Source of the DNA: an uncultured Nitrososphaerota archaeon
Lineage (GTDB): Archaea; Thermoproteota; Nitrososphaeria; Nitrososphaerales; Nitrosopumilaceae
Length of the DNA: 64,000 bases
Direction of reading: 5' to 3'
Assembly (NCBI GenBank): GCA_963824385.1
Contig: CAWGPD010000004.1
Location: forward strand, 544,001-608,000
Part shown: positions 42,001-51,000 of the stretch, piece by piece
How the letters are laid out: each line of letters begins with the position of its first letter
Numbering within the stretch: the first letter of the stretch is position 1
Program-made: the position numbers

Positions 42001-45000
42001 GTGCACCCTCTCGTACAACCCAGCCCCATTCATCTGTTGAAAATGGCTTGGTCTTAACCCCTAGATGTTTTTTGACCATTCTAGGTGCGACTGTTTCAAT
42101 TCCAAGATTTGTGGCAAGCCATTTTTCATCGCTCATGCCATTTACTTCAGACATGTCATGTAATAAGCTTTGGATCAGCACATACGGCAGAGAATGTCAT
42201 ATGCGTAGTTCCAACAAATCTTGCGCCCAAAGACTTCAAACCTTTCCACAACTCTATAATGGCATCATAGTTTGGTTGAAAGTCTCTGTTATCACAACCA
42301 TAAAGAAGCATTTCATCAGAATGTAACCAGATAGAATCAAAACCATAATCAAGATTCATTTTTGCCTCTTGTTGTAATCTTTCTAGTGGTAAATCTTTTT
42401 TTGATCTTTTATTGACATCGCAAAAGTCACAGCCTCGTCCACATCCTCGCATTGCCTCAATTAATGAGTTAACAGTAGGTCCCTGAATCATAGGAATATT
42501 TTGAATATTCTTAACAAAGCAATGCATCAATTCTGGCGCATCACCTTTTTCAAGATCATGGAAAAGATCTGAAGCTTAATTCATCTGCTTCACCTACTAC
42601 AACTGTATCAATACCATGAATTTTCATTCTATCAGTTTTTGCAAGTTCCCATGCACCGTTACCACCAACTACAACATGAAAGTTATACTTCTTTTTCAGT
42701 TGGATTATCTTAGCACACATTCTCTTAAATTTCATTGCAATGTAAGAGAGTTTTTCAGGGGACATTGTTGTAGTAACTGGAGCCATGCCAAGAGGATCCA
42801 TAACATTTATTCCTACAACTTTGGTATCAGGTCCAACACATTTTTCTAAATAATCAGGGTTTGCAATAAACACTTCATCTCGTTTGTAACCTTGTAATAG
42901 TGCAGATTCTACTCTTCTCAAACCAACTTGAGCCACCTTTGCTTCACCAGTCACTTGATCAGTTTCAACTGGAGGACAAAACACTTTATCAAAAACCCAT
43001 TCTGGAACTACTTCGTAAGGACCACATGCAATAAAGCCATACAGAAAATTGCCTCTATAATTAGTCATAAGGCTACGATTTGCAGTTAGAACTATTCTCC
43101 TTCCTGCCATTCCTTTCATCGACTTCTTTCCACTATGATATAAATCGTTTACCTAGATACATTATGAAAATTATTTACTTTTGACATATAAACAGGTATC
43201 ATATATCTACAGACAATGGCTGGAGTAGAACCAAGACATGTTGAAGCACATCAAAAAGAGAGCAGTTCGATAAGAGATTTTGTATTTGGCTTTGGTGACG
43301 GCATAAACACTTCACTAGGGCTTGTAGCTGGAGTTGGAGGGGCAGCAATGCCTTCCAACATAATTATGCTTGCGGCCATTGTTGCCATGTTTACAGGGGC
43401 TAAAGCAATGGCTGTACAGAATTATCTTGCAGTGAAATCACAAAGACAGATTCTCAACTCTGAGATTGAACGAGAGAAATGGGAGATGGATAATGTACCA
43501 GAAGCAGAAAGAAGAGAGATAGAAGACGTATACAAGGCAAAAGGATTCACTGGCCAGGATTTAGAGAAAATTGTAAACAAGATAACATCTGACAAGAAAG
43601 TTTGGTTAGATACCATGCTTACAGAAGAACTCAAATTGAATTTAGAAATAGTTGGAAGCCCTCTAAAGAGTGCCTTCCGTATGTTTGGTGCATTTCTTGT
43701 CGGAGGAATACTACCTATTATTCCTTATTTCTTTTTAAGCGGATATATCCCACTCTTTGTGGCAATAGGAGTTAGTCTTTCTGCATCTTTTATCATTGGT
43801 GCAATTAAATCAAAGATTGCTAACATCAGCATGCTACGAGGTGGATTAGAGATGGCGGGACTAGGTACCGGTATTGCTCTAATAGGATATGGAATAGGTT
43901 CTGAGTTAGGAAGTCTTGGAATTATTAAGACCTGATTTTTTTCGTACACTTCTATTTGCTATATTAGTGCAAATGCTCCTGCACCAATACCATTATCAAT
44001 ATTGACAACGGAAAGTCCCAATGTACAACTTTGCAACATAGATGCCAATGCTGCTACTCCTTTTGCCCCATAACCATATCCAACTGATGATGGCACTCCA
44101 ATAACAGGTATGTCTACTAGTGATGAGATTATGGATGCAAGTGCACCTTCCATTCCAGCAACTACTATAATTGCATCCACATCATGATGTACCATTTTTT
44201 TAACTATAGGAAACAGTCTATGAATTCCAGCTATGCCAACATCATAACTACAGACACATTGACATCCCATCACTTCACACATCAGTCTTGCTTCTTCTGC
44301 AACCCCAACATCCGAAGTTCCAGCTGTCAATATTCCAACCTTTCCTCCCGTAGAAGACAATTTTTTGAAGAAAAGTATAGTGGTGGTATTTTTCCCTGTC
44401 TGTATTTTCATTTTATTCTTTCTAGAAAAAGTCAGCATTTGCTTGTAATGATCCTTGTTGATTCTTGAGACAAGAACAGAATCTGCTTTAGATGTTGTTG
44501 CAAGAATTATTTTCTTAAGATCCAAAAATTCTTTTTTTTCAGCAAATATAACCTCGGGTATTCCTCTGCGTAACTTTCTACTCATATCGATCTTGGCAAA
44601 ATCTTCTATTTTCTCTATAGAGTATAGAGAAAGCAATTTCTTGGCTTTTGGTACACTTATCTTTCCTAGATCAAGCGATTCTAATATTTCAGTAAGATCC
44701 AACACTATTTGTAATTATGATACAGTTAAAAATTTAATCAGAGCCCAAGATTTGAGATGGCACCTTTGACGCTCTCTACTCCCTTTTTGAACCACTCTTT
44801 TTCATTTGAATCCAGATCCAATTCTATTATTTTCTCAACACCATTTTTACTTATAACTGCTGGAACACCAATAGTGACATCAGAGTAACCATATTCTCCA
44901 TCAAGATACGTTGCCACAGGAATAACCTGTCTTGTGTTTTTCAATACGGCCTCTATGATTGTAGATATTGCATTTCCCGGGGCATGAACTGTTGCACCCT

Positions 45001-48000: not shown

Positions 48001-51000
48001 AACAGAGTCAAACAATACTGCAATCTACGGAATAGCATCACTAAACAAAGGGAAACATATCATAACATCATCTATTGAACATGATGCAATCCTAGAACCC
48101 TGTAGATATCTTGAAAAAGAAGGATACAAAATATCTTTTCTGCCCGTAGACCATCAGGGTTTTGTAAATCTAGACGAACTTAAAAGAGAGATTTCAAGTG
48201 ATACTTGCCTGATTACAATAATGTATGCCAATAATGAAGTCGGGACAATTCAGCCTATAAAGGAAATAGCTAAGATTGCAAGAGAGAGAAACATTATTTT
48301 CCACACAGACGCGGTTCAAGCAATTGGAAAGACTCCCATAGATGTTAAGGACCTTGGAATCGATTTGCTTTCAATTTCATCTCACAAAATAAATGGTCCA
48401 AAAGGCGTTGGTGCCCTGTATATTAGAAATGGTATCAAAATATCACCTCTAATTTTAGGAGGAGGTCAAGAAAGAGGATTACGTTCAGGTACAGAGAATG
48501 TAGCAAGCATTATTGGATTTGGAATGGCATGTAAATTAGCAAAGGATAATGAGAATGAAAATATACAACATTTCAAAAAATTAACTATAAGGTTGATTTC
48601 ACGAGTTTTATCTGAAATACCATCAACTACACTTAATGGACATCCAGATGTGAGAATTCCTAATAACACTCACTTTACTTTTCTTGGTGTAAACGGAGAG
48701 GATCTAATAATAAAATTAGATGAAAATAAAATATCTGCGTCTACTGGCTCTGCTTGTTCTGTAAAGATCCAAAAAGCATCACATGTGTTAAAAGCAATGG
48801 GCTTTTCACATGAACAAGTAACAGGATCTTTACGTCTTACAGTAGGAATAACAAACACAGAAGAAGAAATTGATGAAACTGTAGATGTATTAAAAAAAGT
48901 CGTTCAGGAATTACGTGCAGTATCACCATACAAAAGTAAATACAATTTTTAAAAATTCTAGATTTCCATTATGGAAGAACTTGAATTGTATATTGACTAT
49001 TATCTATGAGTGGCACTAGAGAATCCATTCCATTCCAGACATAGACTTCGGCAGAATAAACTCCAGGTGATGTTGGTGTCCATTGGAGTTCTTCGTTCAT
49101 AGTAGACAGATTTGCAAGATTATCTTCAGACCATTTTAGGAAAACAACTTTATTGTTACTATCTTTTATCTGGACAATATAAGAGATATTTTGATAATTA
49201 GAATAATTATTGTTTGTAATCATGCTCTGAAAATTTATTGCTTGTCCAACATGTGGATTTTGAAGTAATGGCCTTCCAGAGCTATCACTAATTTGTGTTG
49301 ACTTGGAAACTGTGTTGTATGGTACTGTAGTGATTGCAGATTGTGTTGTAGATTGTGCTGTGGCAGAAGAGGCAACTATTGCAGGTATTATAACGGACCT
49401 ACCAAATTGATCTCTATAATCATGATACCATGCCTGAACACTACCTCCAACAGAGGATATTAGAGCAGTGCCATCCTCATTACATATCTGTGATGGCATT
49501 TTAAAAATGCCCTGGAATATTCCAGTACCTGGTCCTGTTTCAGTTAGTGTAAAACCCGTAGCTGCAAGTCCCCCATAATTGACTCCATCTATCGTACAAT
49601 GATGAAATCTAAATCCCTTAATCCAAACTTCTAGGAGTATGTTTCCATCATTATCTCCAACGGTATCATCAGCTGGAGAACCAGGATCGTTTACACTTGA
49701 ATAAGTTACAATGGTATCAGCATCAGTAGTGAGATCTGGGTCATTGACTGTAATTGTAACATCTGAGCCAATTCTATAATTTGATGAATCAAGTGTCACT
49801 ATACCAGTATGTGTAGGAAGATTACTTTGTGATGTTACAGGTGTTGCTGATCCTCCTTGTTGACTACCTATGATTGAAAAGTGTATTGCGTTAGCATCTG
49901 TAAGTTCGTTACTTACAAGAAATTTAATATTACTACCAAAAGTACTAAGACTTTTAATCAAATTAGGATCAAACTGATTTAATTGATTTATTACCGCATA
50001 CTCCATTGTTCCAGTAAATACACCTGAATTGGCAGATGTTTCTTGTAGTTCTGCTCTGTAGATAGCATTGTTTACTTGTTGTTCATTTTTACTTCCAAAG
50101 GAAAAAAGATCAAAGACTATTGGTTGAGTATCGCTTGGATTTGAAAACTCACCTGAAGTATTGAAATTAATTTCTAAATATACTGGAAGACCAGATGAGA
50201 TTGATGCAATAGATGCCACGGTGGCATCGCTTATCTGAACTAAGCCATTACCAGAATCAATTGTTCCTGGTGCTAAGATTTGTACTGGCAAGTTCCCAAC
50301 AGAACCAAAATACAGTGTCATACTGGTACCAGAGAATGAAGTTATGCCTAGTTGTTGTTGAAAAGATCTTAAATCATAATTTATCCAATTAGTTCCATTT
50401 GAATTTGGTTGACTTGTATCTATGAGTAAATTCTGAAGGGAATTGGCTGAAATACCAAGATTTATTGTGATTTTCTGGAAATTAGACATTGATTGACTCC
50501 TAGTATCCACTATCAGTCTCAGGGAATTGCTATCAAATACAGCAGATGGAACTGTAAGAGTGCTAGAAGTATTATAGAATGTAACATCTGAGGAGCTACT
50601 CAATGTAATTGGAGTTCCAATCTCCAAGGTCGGTATTCTTGCTGAACTTCTAAAAACATCTAGTTGATCAATCTGATTTGAATTAAGATTTTGAGTATTA
50701 TCTACTAGAGTGATTGTTTCTTTTTGACCTGGATTAAATTGACTTTGAGCAGTACCAACAGTAAGACTTCCTGTAGAAGTACCAGAAACAATAGAAACAC
50801 TTTGTTGATCATAAGTAATAGAACCAGAGTTACCCCTAGGAGCATTTGGTAGTGTTCCAATTGTAGATATGCTAGCATAGGAGCTTTCAAAAATTCCAGT
50901 ATGTGGTCCTGTTTCTACAAAAGTTACCAATTGGTTGTACATGCCATTAAGTGATGAACTTGTTTGAAGAGAATTAGTTTTCAGATTTACTACATTTGAT

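Follow-up and report, generated by a model that had tools for sequence, protein, structure and literature searches.

Ornithine cyclodeaminases (OCDs) with a non-covalently bound nickel-pincer adenine dinucleotide (NPAD) are described in the accessible text of Semersky et al. 2026 (PMC13524815), which cites Desguin 2025 (Int J Biol Macromol 330:147799) for them and for the use of LarE as the search anchor with which the OCD containing NPAD was found. In NCBIfam release 20.0 the family TIGR00300 is named 'ornithine cyclodeaminase, nickel-pincer nucleotide-dependent', and the family identity of the OCD of Desguin 2025, a paper taken here through its citation in PMC13524815, rests on this name. 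It is from curation and this literature that the OCD family is taken to use the pincer cofactor in the NPAD form. The link between enzyme and cofactor is already known, being both published and curated, and we add no new biochemistry to it. The first-pass annotation of the DNA studied here had proposed that the pincer cofactor serves the OCD; the TIGR00300 name and Desguin 2025, as cited, support this proposal and also mean that it is not new. That annotation had made its novelty conditional on the content of Desguin 2025, and, with this caveat settled, what may still be new is the physiological inference for ammonia oxidisers alone. A further described system is the LarE of Thermotoga maritima, which, in the accessible text of PMC9283937, has an SGGxDS motif and in which Cys92, Cys95 and Cys172 are the residues that were mutated.

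We consider it probable that the lar cluster described below builds the nickel-pincer cofactor from nicotinic acid adenine dinucleotide, and that its most likely user is the TIGR00300-family OCD of the same genome, which would convert ornithine to proline and ammonia through a hydride shuttle on the bound cofactor. The gene identities, the operon-like overlaps, the LarE motif, the missing alternative genes and the co-occurrence were all observed directly. We infer that the OCD of archaeal ammonia oxidisers uses the pincer cofactor and that nickel is hence required to make proline.

The lar cluster and its embedded malate dehydrogenase

ORF calling and profile searches identified genes for LarB, malate dehydrogenase, LarC, LarE and cysteine desulfurase at 43959-48952 of the window (the whole stretch of 64,000 nucleotides analysed), bearing out the positions and families given earlier for a lar gene set next to a cysteine desulfurase. 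The genes form a two-armed cluster, in which mdh and larB share one strand and larC, larE and the cysteine desulfurase gene share the opposite one:

43959-44705, minus strand, larB (NF033503, 239.7 bits; PF00731 AIRC, 56 bits)
44738-45652, minus strand, mdh, LDH-like malate dehydrogenase (NF004863, 381.8 bits; Ldh_1_N, Ldh_1_C)
45653-45768, no strand, divergent intergenic region of 116 bp between mdh-larB and larC-larE-desulfurase
45769-47001, plus strand, larC (TIGR00299, 163.1 bits; NF052512, 106 bits; PF01969, 348.7 bits)
46998-47798, plus strand, larE (TIGR00268, 266.3 bits)
47795-48952, plus strand, NifS/IscS-like cysteine desulfurase (PF00266, 307.4 bits)

On the minus strand, larB lies 32 bp downstream of mdh, and on the plus strand the overlaps between larC and larE and between larE and the desulfurase gene are operon-like (4 bp each). 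From this layout, the promoters of both divergent arms are presumed to lie inside the 116-bp region. Among 20 LarC loci fetched from the order, the head-to-head arrangement of the arms was preserved in 15, and 15 of the 20 also preserved the larC-larE-desulfurase order (at least 50% identity); larB orthologues adjoined mdh in 13.

LarB scored above the NF033503 equivalog cut-off of 175 bits, with residues 39-247 matching profile positions 1-204 of 209, and would carboxylate the pyridine ring of the precursor, nicotinic acid adenine dinucleotide. LarE, also above its cut-off (150 bits for TIGR00268), would be the ATP-dependent sulfur insertase that converts the two carboxylates to thiocarboxylates. 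Its translation contains the PP-loop SGGxDS motif as SGGVDS at residues 22-27, and a CXXC plus a distant cysteine, namely Cys92, Cys95 and Cys172 (all positions counted by hand). By motif, it is predicted to be a LarE of the catalytic [4Fe-4S] (CXXC-C), non-sacrificial type. LarC, the cyclometallase that would insert nickel, has its two parts fused in a single ORF spanned by PF01969 (residues 3-393), with the LarC1 part at residues 86-248 (TIGR00299, cut-off 90) and the LarC2 part at residues 261-382 (NF052512, cut-off 50). The desulfurase scored 517.3 bits with TIGR03402 (NifS), under the cut-off of 530.75, and 325.2 bits with NF002806 (IscS subfamily), over the cut-off of 304. It is likely the sulfur donor to LarE, which it would resupply from a gene that overlaps larE.

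The mdh gene, above the NF004863 cut-off (283 bits), is syntenic across families, and in roughly 86 of 116 LarC genomes, from eight families, no more than about 3.5 kb separates it from larC (coordinates compared by eye). This proximity, the adjacency of mdh and larC in 15 of the 20 fetched loci and the persistence of larB beside mdh in split clusters (L117, L118) might suggest that the malate dehydrogenase is itself the cofactor user, as an NAD-fold enzyme binding the dinucleotide form; many lar gene neighbours are annotated as NAD(P)H oxidoreductases, according to the accessible text of Semersky et al. (PMC13524815). However, an orthologue is preserved in 29 of the 33 genomes of family f8, which lacks LarC, the score is that of a normal malate dehydrogenase, and the GEHGE motif and other motifs are conserved alike in copies linked to lar genes and in those of six genomes that have no LarC. 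In the alignment, Lar-linked and Lar-less copies were identical at the features diagnostic of the enzyme: the glycine-rich, dinucleotide-binding loop, the acidic residue that follows strand 2 (Asp), the RKPGMTR loop with its substrate arginines, and the catalytic His. Furthermore, a net dehydrogenase would need an exchangeable cofactor rather than a bound one. The mdh product looks like an ordinary NAD enzyme and not a client, and a role for it as the user of the pincer cofactor is highly improbable.

The ornithine cyclodeaminase and the genome inventory

An OCD of the MJ1480/ArgZ-C type is encoded on contig 1, a different contig from that of the lar genes, as two ORFs of 179 and 237 aa. The two halves matched TIGR00300 at profile positions 3-175 and 178-407, with 200.9 and 354.4 bits, each alone below the equivalog cut-off of 410.8 bits owing to a 1-base insertion; the intact orthologue from the same genus scored 571.1 bits. 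The closest solved chains were 3c2q and 3mgj, the latter titled MJ1480. Where the first-pass annotation saw a gene split by an indel, comparison with the same-genus genome located one extra base in the assembly (L001:~1465), and near-identical contigs (at least 99% alike) from four of four public runs, belonging to four studies, lacked it. On the score of the intact orthologue and the absence of the insertion from all four runs, we assign the OCD to the TIGR00300 family. The studied genome was alone among 110 OCD genomes in having a frameshifted OCD, the remaining partial matches being at contig ends. The two ORFs and the +1 frameshift would also be seen if the OCD were a pseudogene, in a strain that needed external proline and whose lar cluster had no client. 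We find this scarcely credible, given the four runs without the extra base and that each half is otherwise intact and strongly conserved. A second gene, for an aldo-keto reductase, is also broken over two frames, and the 86% completeness of the 5-contig assembly fits scattered indel errors. The extra base is either a mistake of the assembly or a mutation private to this genome, and the split, although present in the assembly, is probably not biological.

The studied genome (G000) comprises 1.68 Mb in 5 contigs and is 86.28% complete, and the absences given here are to be read against this completeness. As had been claimed, LarA is missing (Lar_N, PF09861, 0 matches at E<=10), and DUF362 gave no match at E<=0.1; the TIGR00300-family OCD on contig 1 is therefore most likely the cofactor user. 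No proC was found over the cut-off (best match 18.5 bits), nor a mu-crystallin OCD at E<=1. The sole proline route of the first-pass annotation thus stands as the MJ1480-type OCD being the only recognisable one, here and across the two large families of ammonia oxidisers that were sampled. We likewise recovered the reported nickel genes (three NicO ORFs and one NikR_C ORF) and the reported lack of urease and Ni-Fe hydrogenase, with no urease alpha at E<=1 and a best match of 17.6 bits, under the cut-off of 25.8, for the NiFe hydrogenase large subunit. Ureases occur in other ammonia-oxidising archaea (AOA), and the claim of a first physiological role for nickel in AOA was for this reason an overclaim.

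Co-occurrence of OCD and lar genes in the order and the phylum

Profile searches for OCD, LarC, Lar_N and proC in a sample of 151 genomes of the order showed LarC in 109 of the 110 OCD genomes and OCD in 104 of the 107 LarC genomes without Lar_N. The seven LarC genomes without OCD included four with Lar_N, which was found in 10 of the 151 genomes and in 0/39 of family f1. All genomes of the two main ammonia-oxidiser families, f1 (39/39) and f12 (38/38), 77/77 in total, had OCD and LarC and lacked both Lar_N (LarA) and proC, and family f8 had neither OCD nor LarC (33/33 genomes). The OCD/LarC/Lar_N counts reported earlier therefore hold in this larger sample. In the order-level search, the two control genomes over the TIGR00300 cut-off, M. 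jannaschii and H. volcanii, were both also over that of LarC and under that of Lar_N. The joint absence of OCD and LarC amounts to roughly one event, because it is confined to a single family, and related genomes do not count as independent evidence. The distance from OCD to larC is 13-19 kb in f7 and in one genus of f12, and that from OCD to mdh-larB is 4.6 kb in one genome (G112).

Among the 26 OCD genomes found outside f1 in a phylum sample of 201 genomes, PF01969 (LarC) was missing in 10, even at E<=1, and LarB over the cut-off was also missing in 7 of these 10. The LarC-less OCDs fall into three separate clades, and no column of the alignment separated the OCDs of 8 genomes lacking LarC from those of 19 that have it. 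These genomes and the lack of a separating column suggest that the OCD family may also work with NAD+, and they warn against taking the name 'nickel-pincer nucleotide-dependent' as universal. In other Thermoproteota, lar genes were found within about 9 kb of OCD in 0/20 loci.

These OCDs without lar genes are also what would be expected if the lar cluster served another, unrecognised enzyme, the OCD used ordinary NAD+ and the co-occurrence reflected shared ancestry rather than function. The OCD and lar genes are not adjacent in the studied genome, and three genomes of the order (G001, G005 and G022) have LarC and neither Lar_N nor OCD, so that further cofactor clients may exist. Other folds use the cofactor, such as the aldo-keto reductase NphT in the accessible text of PMC13524815, and the studied genome has three aldo-keto reductase loci; however, the 18 PDB sequence matches of the best of these included none named NphT or nickel-pincer. 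Furthermore, proC was present in three of the five Lar-less OCD genomes tested, so that proline may be made there by another route than the OCD. With the curated family name, Desguin 2025 as cited in PMC13524815, and the 104/107 and 33/33 patterns in the order also against it, we regard service to a different enzyme as unlikely.

Should the pincer cofactor prove indispensable to the OCD, archaeal nitrification would, by way of proline synthesis, have an obligate need for nickel as a trace nutrient. We tentatively suggest, at somewhat less than even confidence, that the two large ammonia-oxidiser families depend for all their proline on an OCD that needs the nickel-pincer cofactor and have no second route, that nickel is an obligate growth factor independent of urease, and that nickel scarcity or chelation could limit nitrification; bolder still, the deeply conserved mdh-larB operon would tie cofactor supply to central carbon metabolism. 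A limitation of proline synthesis by nickel in these archaea is a cheap, testable physiological corollary, and it is the sole part for which no statement was found in the literature searched.

Comparison with known systems

The NPAD-dependent OCD of TIGR00300 (MJ1480/MMP1218 type) belongs to the same family by profile, and LarB, LarC and LarE accompany it here with LarA absent; no distinguishing feature of the protein was found, and the differences are the distance of the OCD from the lar genes and the 1-base assembly insertion. The C-terminal OCD module of the cyanobacterial bifunctional arginine dihydrolase/ornithine cyclodeaminase ArgZ/AgrE (PDB 6lrf, 6lrh, 6juy; NF052231) is homologous (E 1e-74 to Alr4995). 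The C-terminal half of the OCD scored 293.2 bits with NF052231, less than with TIGR00300; in contrast to ArgZ/AgrE, the archaeal OCD lacks the dihydrolase domain, and NCBIfam has a separate 'exception' model for the cyanobacterial form.

As described in the accessible text of Semersky et al. 2026 (PMC13524815), the nickel-pincer-dependent aldo-keto reductase NphT extends use of the cofactor beyond the LarA fold and makes neighbours of lar genes good candidates. It differs in its fold and in having a covalently bound mononucleotide form, and the aldo-keto reductases of the studied genome are not near the lar genes.

The lactate racemase system of Lactiplantibacillus plantarum (larA, larB, larC1/C2, larE) shares its three cofactor-building enzymes with the studied cluster at the equivalog level. 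The cluster differs in lacking LarA, in its single fused LarC ORF and its embedded mdh, in a LarE with the CXXC-C cluster motif rather than a single sacrificial cysteine, and in having a dedicated desulfurase gene that overlaps larE. The [4Fe-4S]-dependent LarE of T. maritima works with IscS (accessible text of PMC9283937); the LarE studied here shares its SGGxDS motif and has Cys92, Cys95 and Cys172 at the same positions, and a cysteine desulfurase is its plausible sulfur donor too. According to that text, however, the desulfurase genes of T. maritima are far from larE, whereas in the archaeal cluster the two genes overlap by 4 bp, an arrangement found in 15 of the 20 loci of the order.

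The lar cluster and its neighbours

Calling of open reading frames placed five genes in two divergent arms at 43959-48952; they are listed here with the two flanking genes.

Genes of the lar cluster and its flanks (window positions, strand, assignment)
43216-43935, + strand: VIT1-family (iron/manganese transporter-like) gene (PF01988, 197.8 bits), flanking larB
43959-44705, - strand: larB, 32 bp after mdh
44738-45652, - strand: mdh (NF004863, over cut-off)
45769-47001, + strand: larC, after a 116-bp gap, overlapping larE by 4 bp
46998-47798, + strand: larE, overlapping the desulfurase gene by 4 bp
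47795-48952, + strand: NifS/IscS-like cysteine desulfurase (class-V aminotransferase)
48969-51179, - strand: 736-aa ORF, flanking the desulfurase gene, with no Pfam or NCBIfam match

LarB, both halves of LarC and LarE passed the NCBIfam equivalog cut-offs, and the LarA domain (Lar_N) had no match in the genome at E<=10, which bears out the first-pass annotation of a Lar cluster lacking LarA. Among 20 LarC loci fetched from across the order, the order larC-larE-desulfurase was conserved in 15, mdh adjoined larC in 15, and larB adjoined mdh in 13. The VIT1-family gene keeps its place beside larB in two fetched loci of family f1 (L003 and L004), one of the two main ammonia-oxidiser families. The 736-aa ORF is 46-78% identical within this family, and its place relative to the lar cluster varies among genera. 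In the Atlas it comes nearest to clusters of S-layer SlaA-like proteins from Nitrososphaerota (feature score 0.97), which we treat as a lead only; given this lead and the position of the ORF on the opposite side of the cluster in other genera, it was rejected as a client of the cofactor.

In roughly 86 of the 116 LarC genomes (counted by eye from match coordinates), the malate dehydrogenase gene and larC are no more than about 3.5 kb apart; these genomes belong to families f1, f3, f4, f5, f6, f7, f12 and f13 and not to f9, f11 or genus g45. The co-directional mdh-larB pair, divergent from larC, was found in eight or more families of the order (loci L003-L020, L117 and L118), and larB is still paired with mdh in the broken clusters of two genomes (G065 and G112), in the second of which the gene for the MJ1480-type ornithine cyclodeaminase (OCD) lies 4.6 kb from the pair. 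This linkage might point to Mdh as a second client. However, mdh is retained in 29 of the 33 family f8 genomes without LarC, and in an alignment the Lar-linked and LarC-less sets did not differ in the catalytic His, the RKPGMTR loop, the dinucleotide loop or the Asp that follows strand 2. Mdh was therefore rejected as a client, since it is kept in LarC-less genomes with an unchanged cofactor pocket. Judged from its sequence, the cluster Mdh looks like an ordinary malate dehydrogenase. Contig 1 (39000-39884) encodes another Ldh/Mdh-family paralogue, which shares 36% identity with the cluster Mdh, and such a paralogue also appeared in many family f1 genomes as a second match in the Mdh search.

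The ornithine cyclodeaminase as probable client of the cofactor

The OCD on contig 1 has a LOR/SDH-N plus ArgZ-like-C architecture, and its closest solved chains are 3c2q and 3mgj (titled MJ1480) and the C-terminal halves of Alr4995 and Sll1336. It is encoded by two ORFs offset by a +1 frame, which align with positions 3-175 and 178-407 of the TIGR00300 profile. The first-pass annotation had described the OCD as split by an indel. The only internal indel relative to a genome of the same genus is one extra base near position 1465 of the fetched contig 1 stretch (L001). This letter is missing from the contigs of all four public runs compared, which come from four studies and are each at least 99% alike over the covered part; the source sample may be among these runs. 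Among the 110 OCD-bearing genomes of the order sample, only this one has a frameshifted OCD, two other partial matches lying at contig ends. One aldo-keto reductase of the genome is also split across two frames (contig 4, 469727-470579) and another has an in-frame TGA (contig 4, 248491-249471). Taken with the OCD frameshift and the state of the assembly (1.68 Mb in 5 contigs, 86.28% complete), these breaks suggest scattered base-level errors. The OCD split is an artefact or a private change and probably not biological. Directly downstream of the OCD is a gene for a heavy-metal P-type ATPase (L001:2279-3625), whose score of 338.5 bits is just under the TIGR01525 cut-off because the end of the locus cuts the gene. 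A look-up of RNA data sets for the OCD stretch listed none, which speaks neither for nor against expression.

In the order sample (150 genomes requested at >=90% completeness, plus this one; n=151), OCD was found in 110 genomes, LarC in 116, Lar_N in 10 and proC, at E<=1e-15, in 22. OCD and LarC occurred together in 109 genomes, repeating on a larger scale the co-occurrence first reported from fewer genomes, and only G014, a genome with Lar_N and proC, had OCD without LarC. LarC without OCD was seen in seven genomes, four of them with Lar_N. Of the 107 LarC genomes without Lar_N, 104 had the OCD (exceptions G001, G005 and G022), and in both ammonia-oxidiser families, f1 (39/39, plus the genome studied here) and f12 (38/38), all members had OCD and LarC and neither Lar_N nor proC. 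Both genes were absent from 34 genomes, namely all 33 of family f8 and G030; the families are kin, and this joint absence is essentially one event. Only 7 of the 33 f8 genomes had proC, so the other 26, with neither OCD nor proC, have no recognisable proline route; their proline may have to come from outside, or be made by another route.

A search of the source genome for proline routes found no proC over cut-off (best 18.5 bits) and no mu-crystallin-type OCD, and to this extent agrees with the claim that the OCD is its only route to proline. Profile searches likewise recovered the nickel genes previously noted, with three NicO-family ORFs and one NikR C-domain, and upheld the reported lack of urease and NiFe hydrogenase: no urease alpha was found, and the hydrogenase large-subunit profile gave a sub-threshold match only. 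Among other candidate clients, the LarA-like DUF362 was ruled out by its absence from the genome. Aldo-keto reductases are present at three loci; they were set aside as the best one had no chain named for NphT or nickel-pincer among its 18 PDB hits, judged by names. That the pincer cofactor serves the OCD is the best reading of the data and, in our view, a likely one. The proposal is not new, being contained already in an NCBIfam name and in a publication.

OCDs in lineages without lar genes

In a sample of 201 Thermoproteota genomes, a full-scoring OCD was present in 26 genomes outside family f1, with LarC in 16 and absent from 10, even at E<=1 (PF01969). In family f15 (3/3; G151, G174 and G251; 97-100% complete), OCD, LarB and LarE were over cut-off and LarC was lacking; another factor may insert nickel there, or the cofactor may be a different one. 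The remaining seven LarC-less genomes, comprising families f27 (3/3) and f40 (2/2), G162 and G321, also had no LarB over cut-off, and the OCDs of these genomes (G164, G171, G178, G234, G248, G162 and G321) scored 438-623 bits with TIGR00300. Three of the five Lar-less OCD genomes tested had proC.

The LarC-less OCDs formed three clades nested among the other OCDs in the tree. An alignment of 28 OCDs, of which 19 came from LarC genomes, 8 from genomes lacking LarC and one carried no label, had no column that separated the groups, even approximately. The OCD family is therefore not tied to lar genes everywhere. Some or all of its members may use NAD+, and the curated name may not be valid for all TIGR00300 members. 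In none of 20 loci from other Thermoproteota did a lar gene lie within about 9 kb of the OCD; a locus search started from six aligned OCDs retained 80 of 522, close relatives that all belong to the order, and yielded no distant neighbourhoods.

Relation to known systems

The TIGR00300 equivalog is named a 'nickel-pincer nucleotide-dependent' OCD in NCBIfam release 20.0, and a sister model is named "putative NPN-dependent ornithine cyclodeaminase". The enzyme of Desguin 2025 is assigned to this family by way of the NCBIfam name and of a TIGR00300 score over cut-off in the M. jannaschii control genome. According to Semersky et al. (PMC13524815), citing Desguin 2025, genome-context analysis anchored on LarE identified the OCD as a pincer enzyme, and its cofactor is non-covalently bound nickel-pincer adenine dinucleotide. 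The available part of GapMind 2026 (PMC13759103) gives Methanococcus Q6LXX7 as a proline-pathway OCD and counts Nitrosopumilus maritimus among the prototrophs; this part makes no mention of the pincer cofactor. A literature search, with subscription journals mostly outside its scope, returned among the papers listed no work joining nickel-pincer terms with ammonia-oxidising archaea, none on this OCD in these archaea and none with a proline-linked nickel requirement. Only the proposal of a nickel need for proline synthesis in archaeal nitrifiers may be new, and it is weakened because Lar-less lineages carry an indistinguishable OCD.

The LarE translation has SGGVDS at residues 22-27, and Cys92, Cys95 and Cys172 form a CXXC-C motif common to this protein and the LarE of T. 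maritima (PMC9283937), in which the motif binds a [4Fe-4S] cluster and the enzyme turns over catalytically given sulfur from a cysteine desulfurase. By analogy, the desulfurase gene overlapping larE would fit a catalytic, sulfur-resupplied mechanism. With the CXXC-C motif and the overlapping desulfurase gene both present, the "sacrificial" label of NCBIfam is therefore probably wrong for this LarE.
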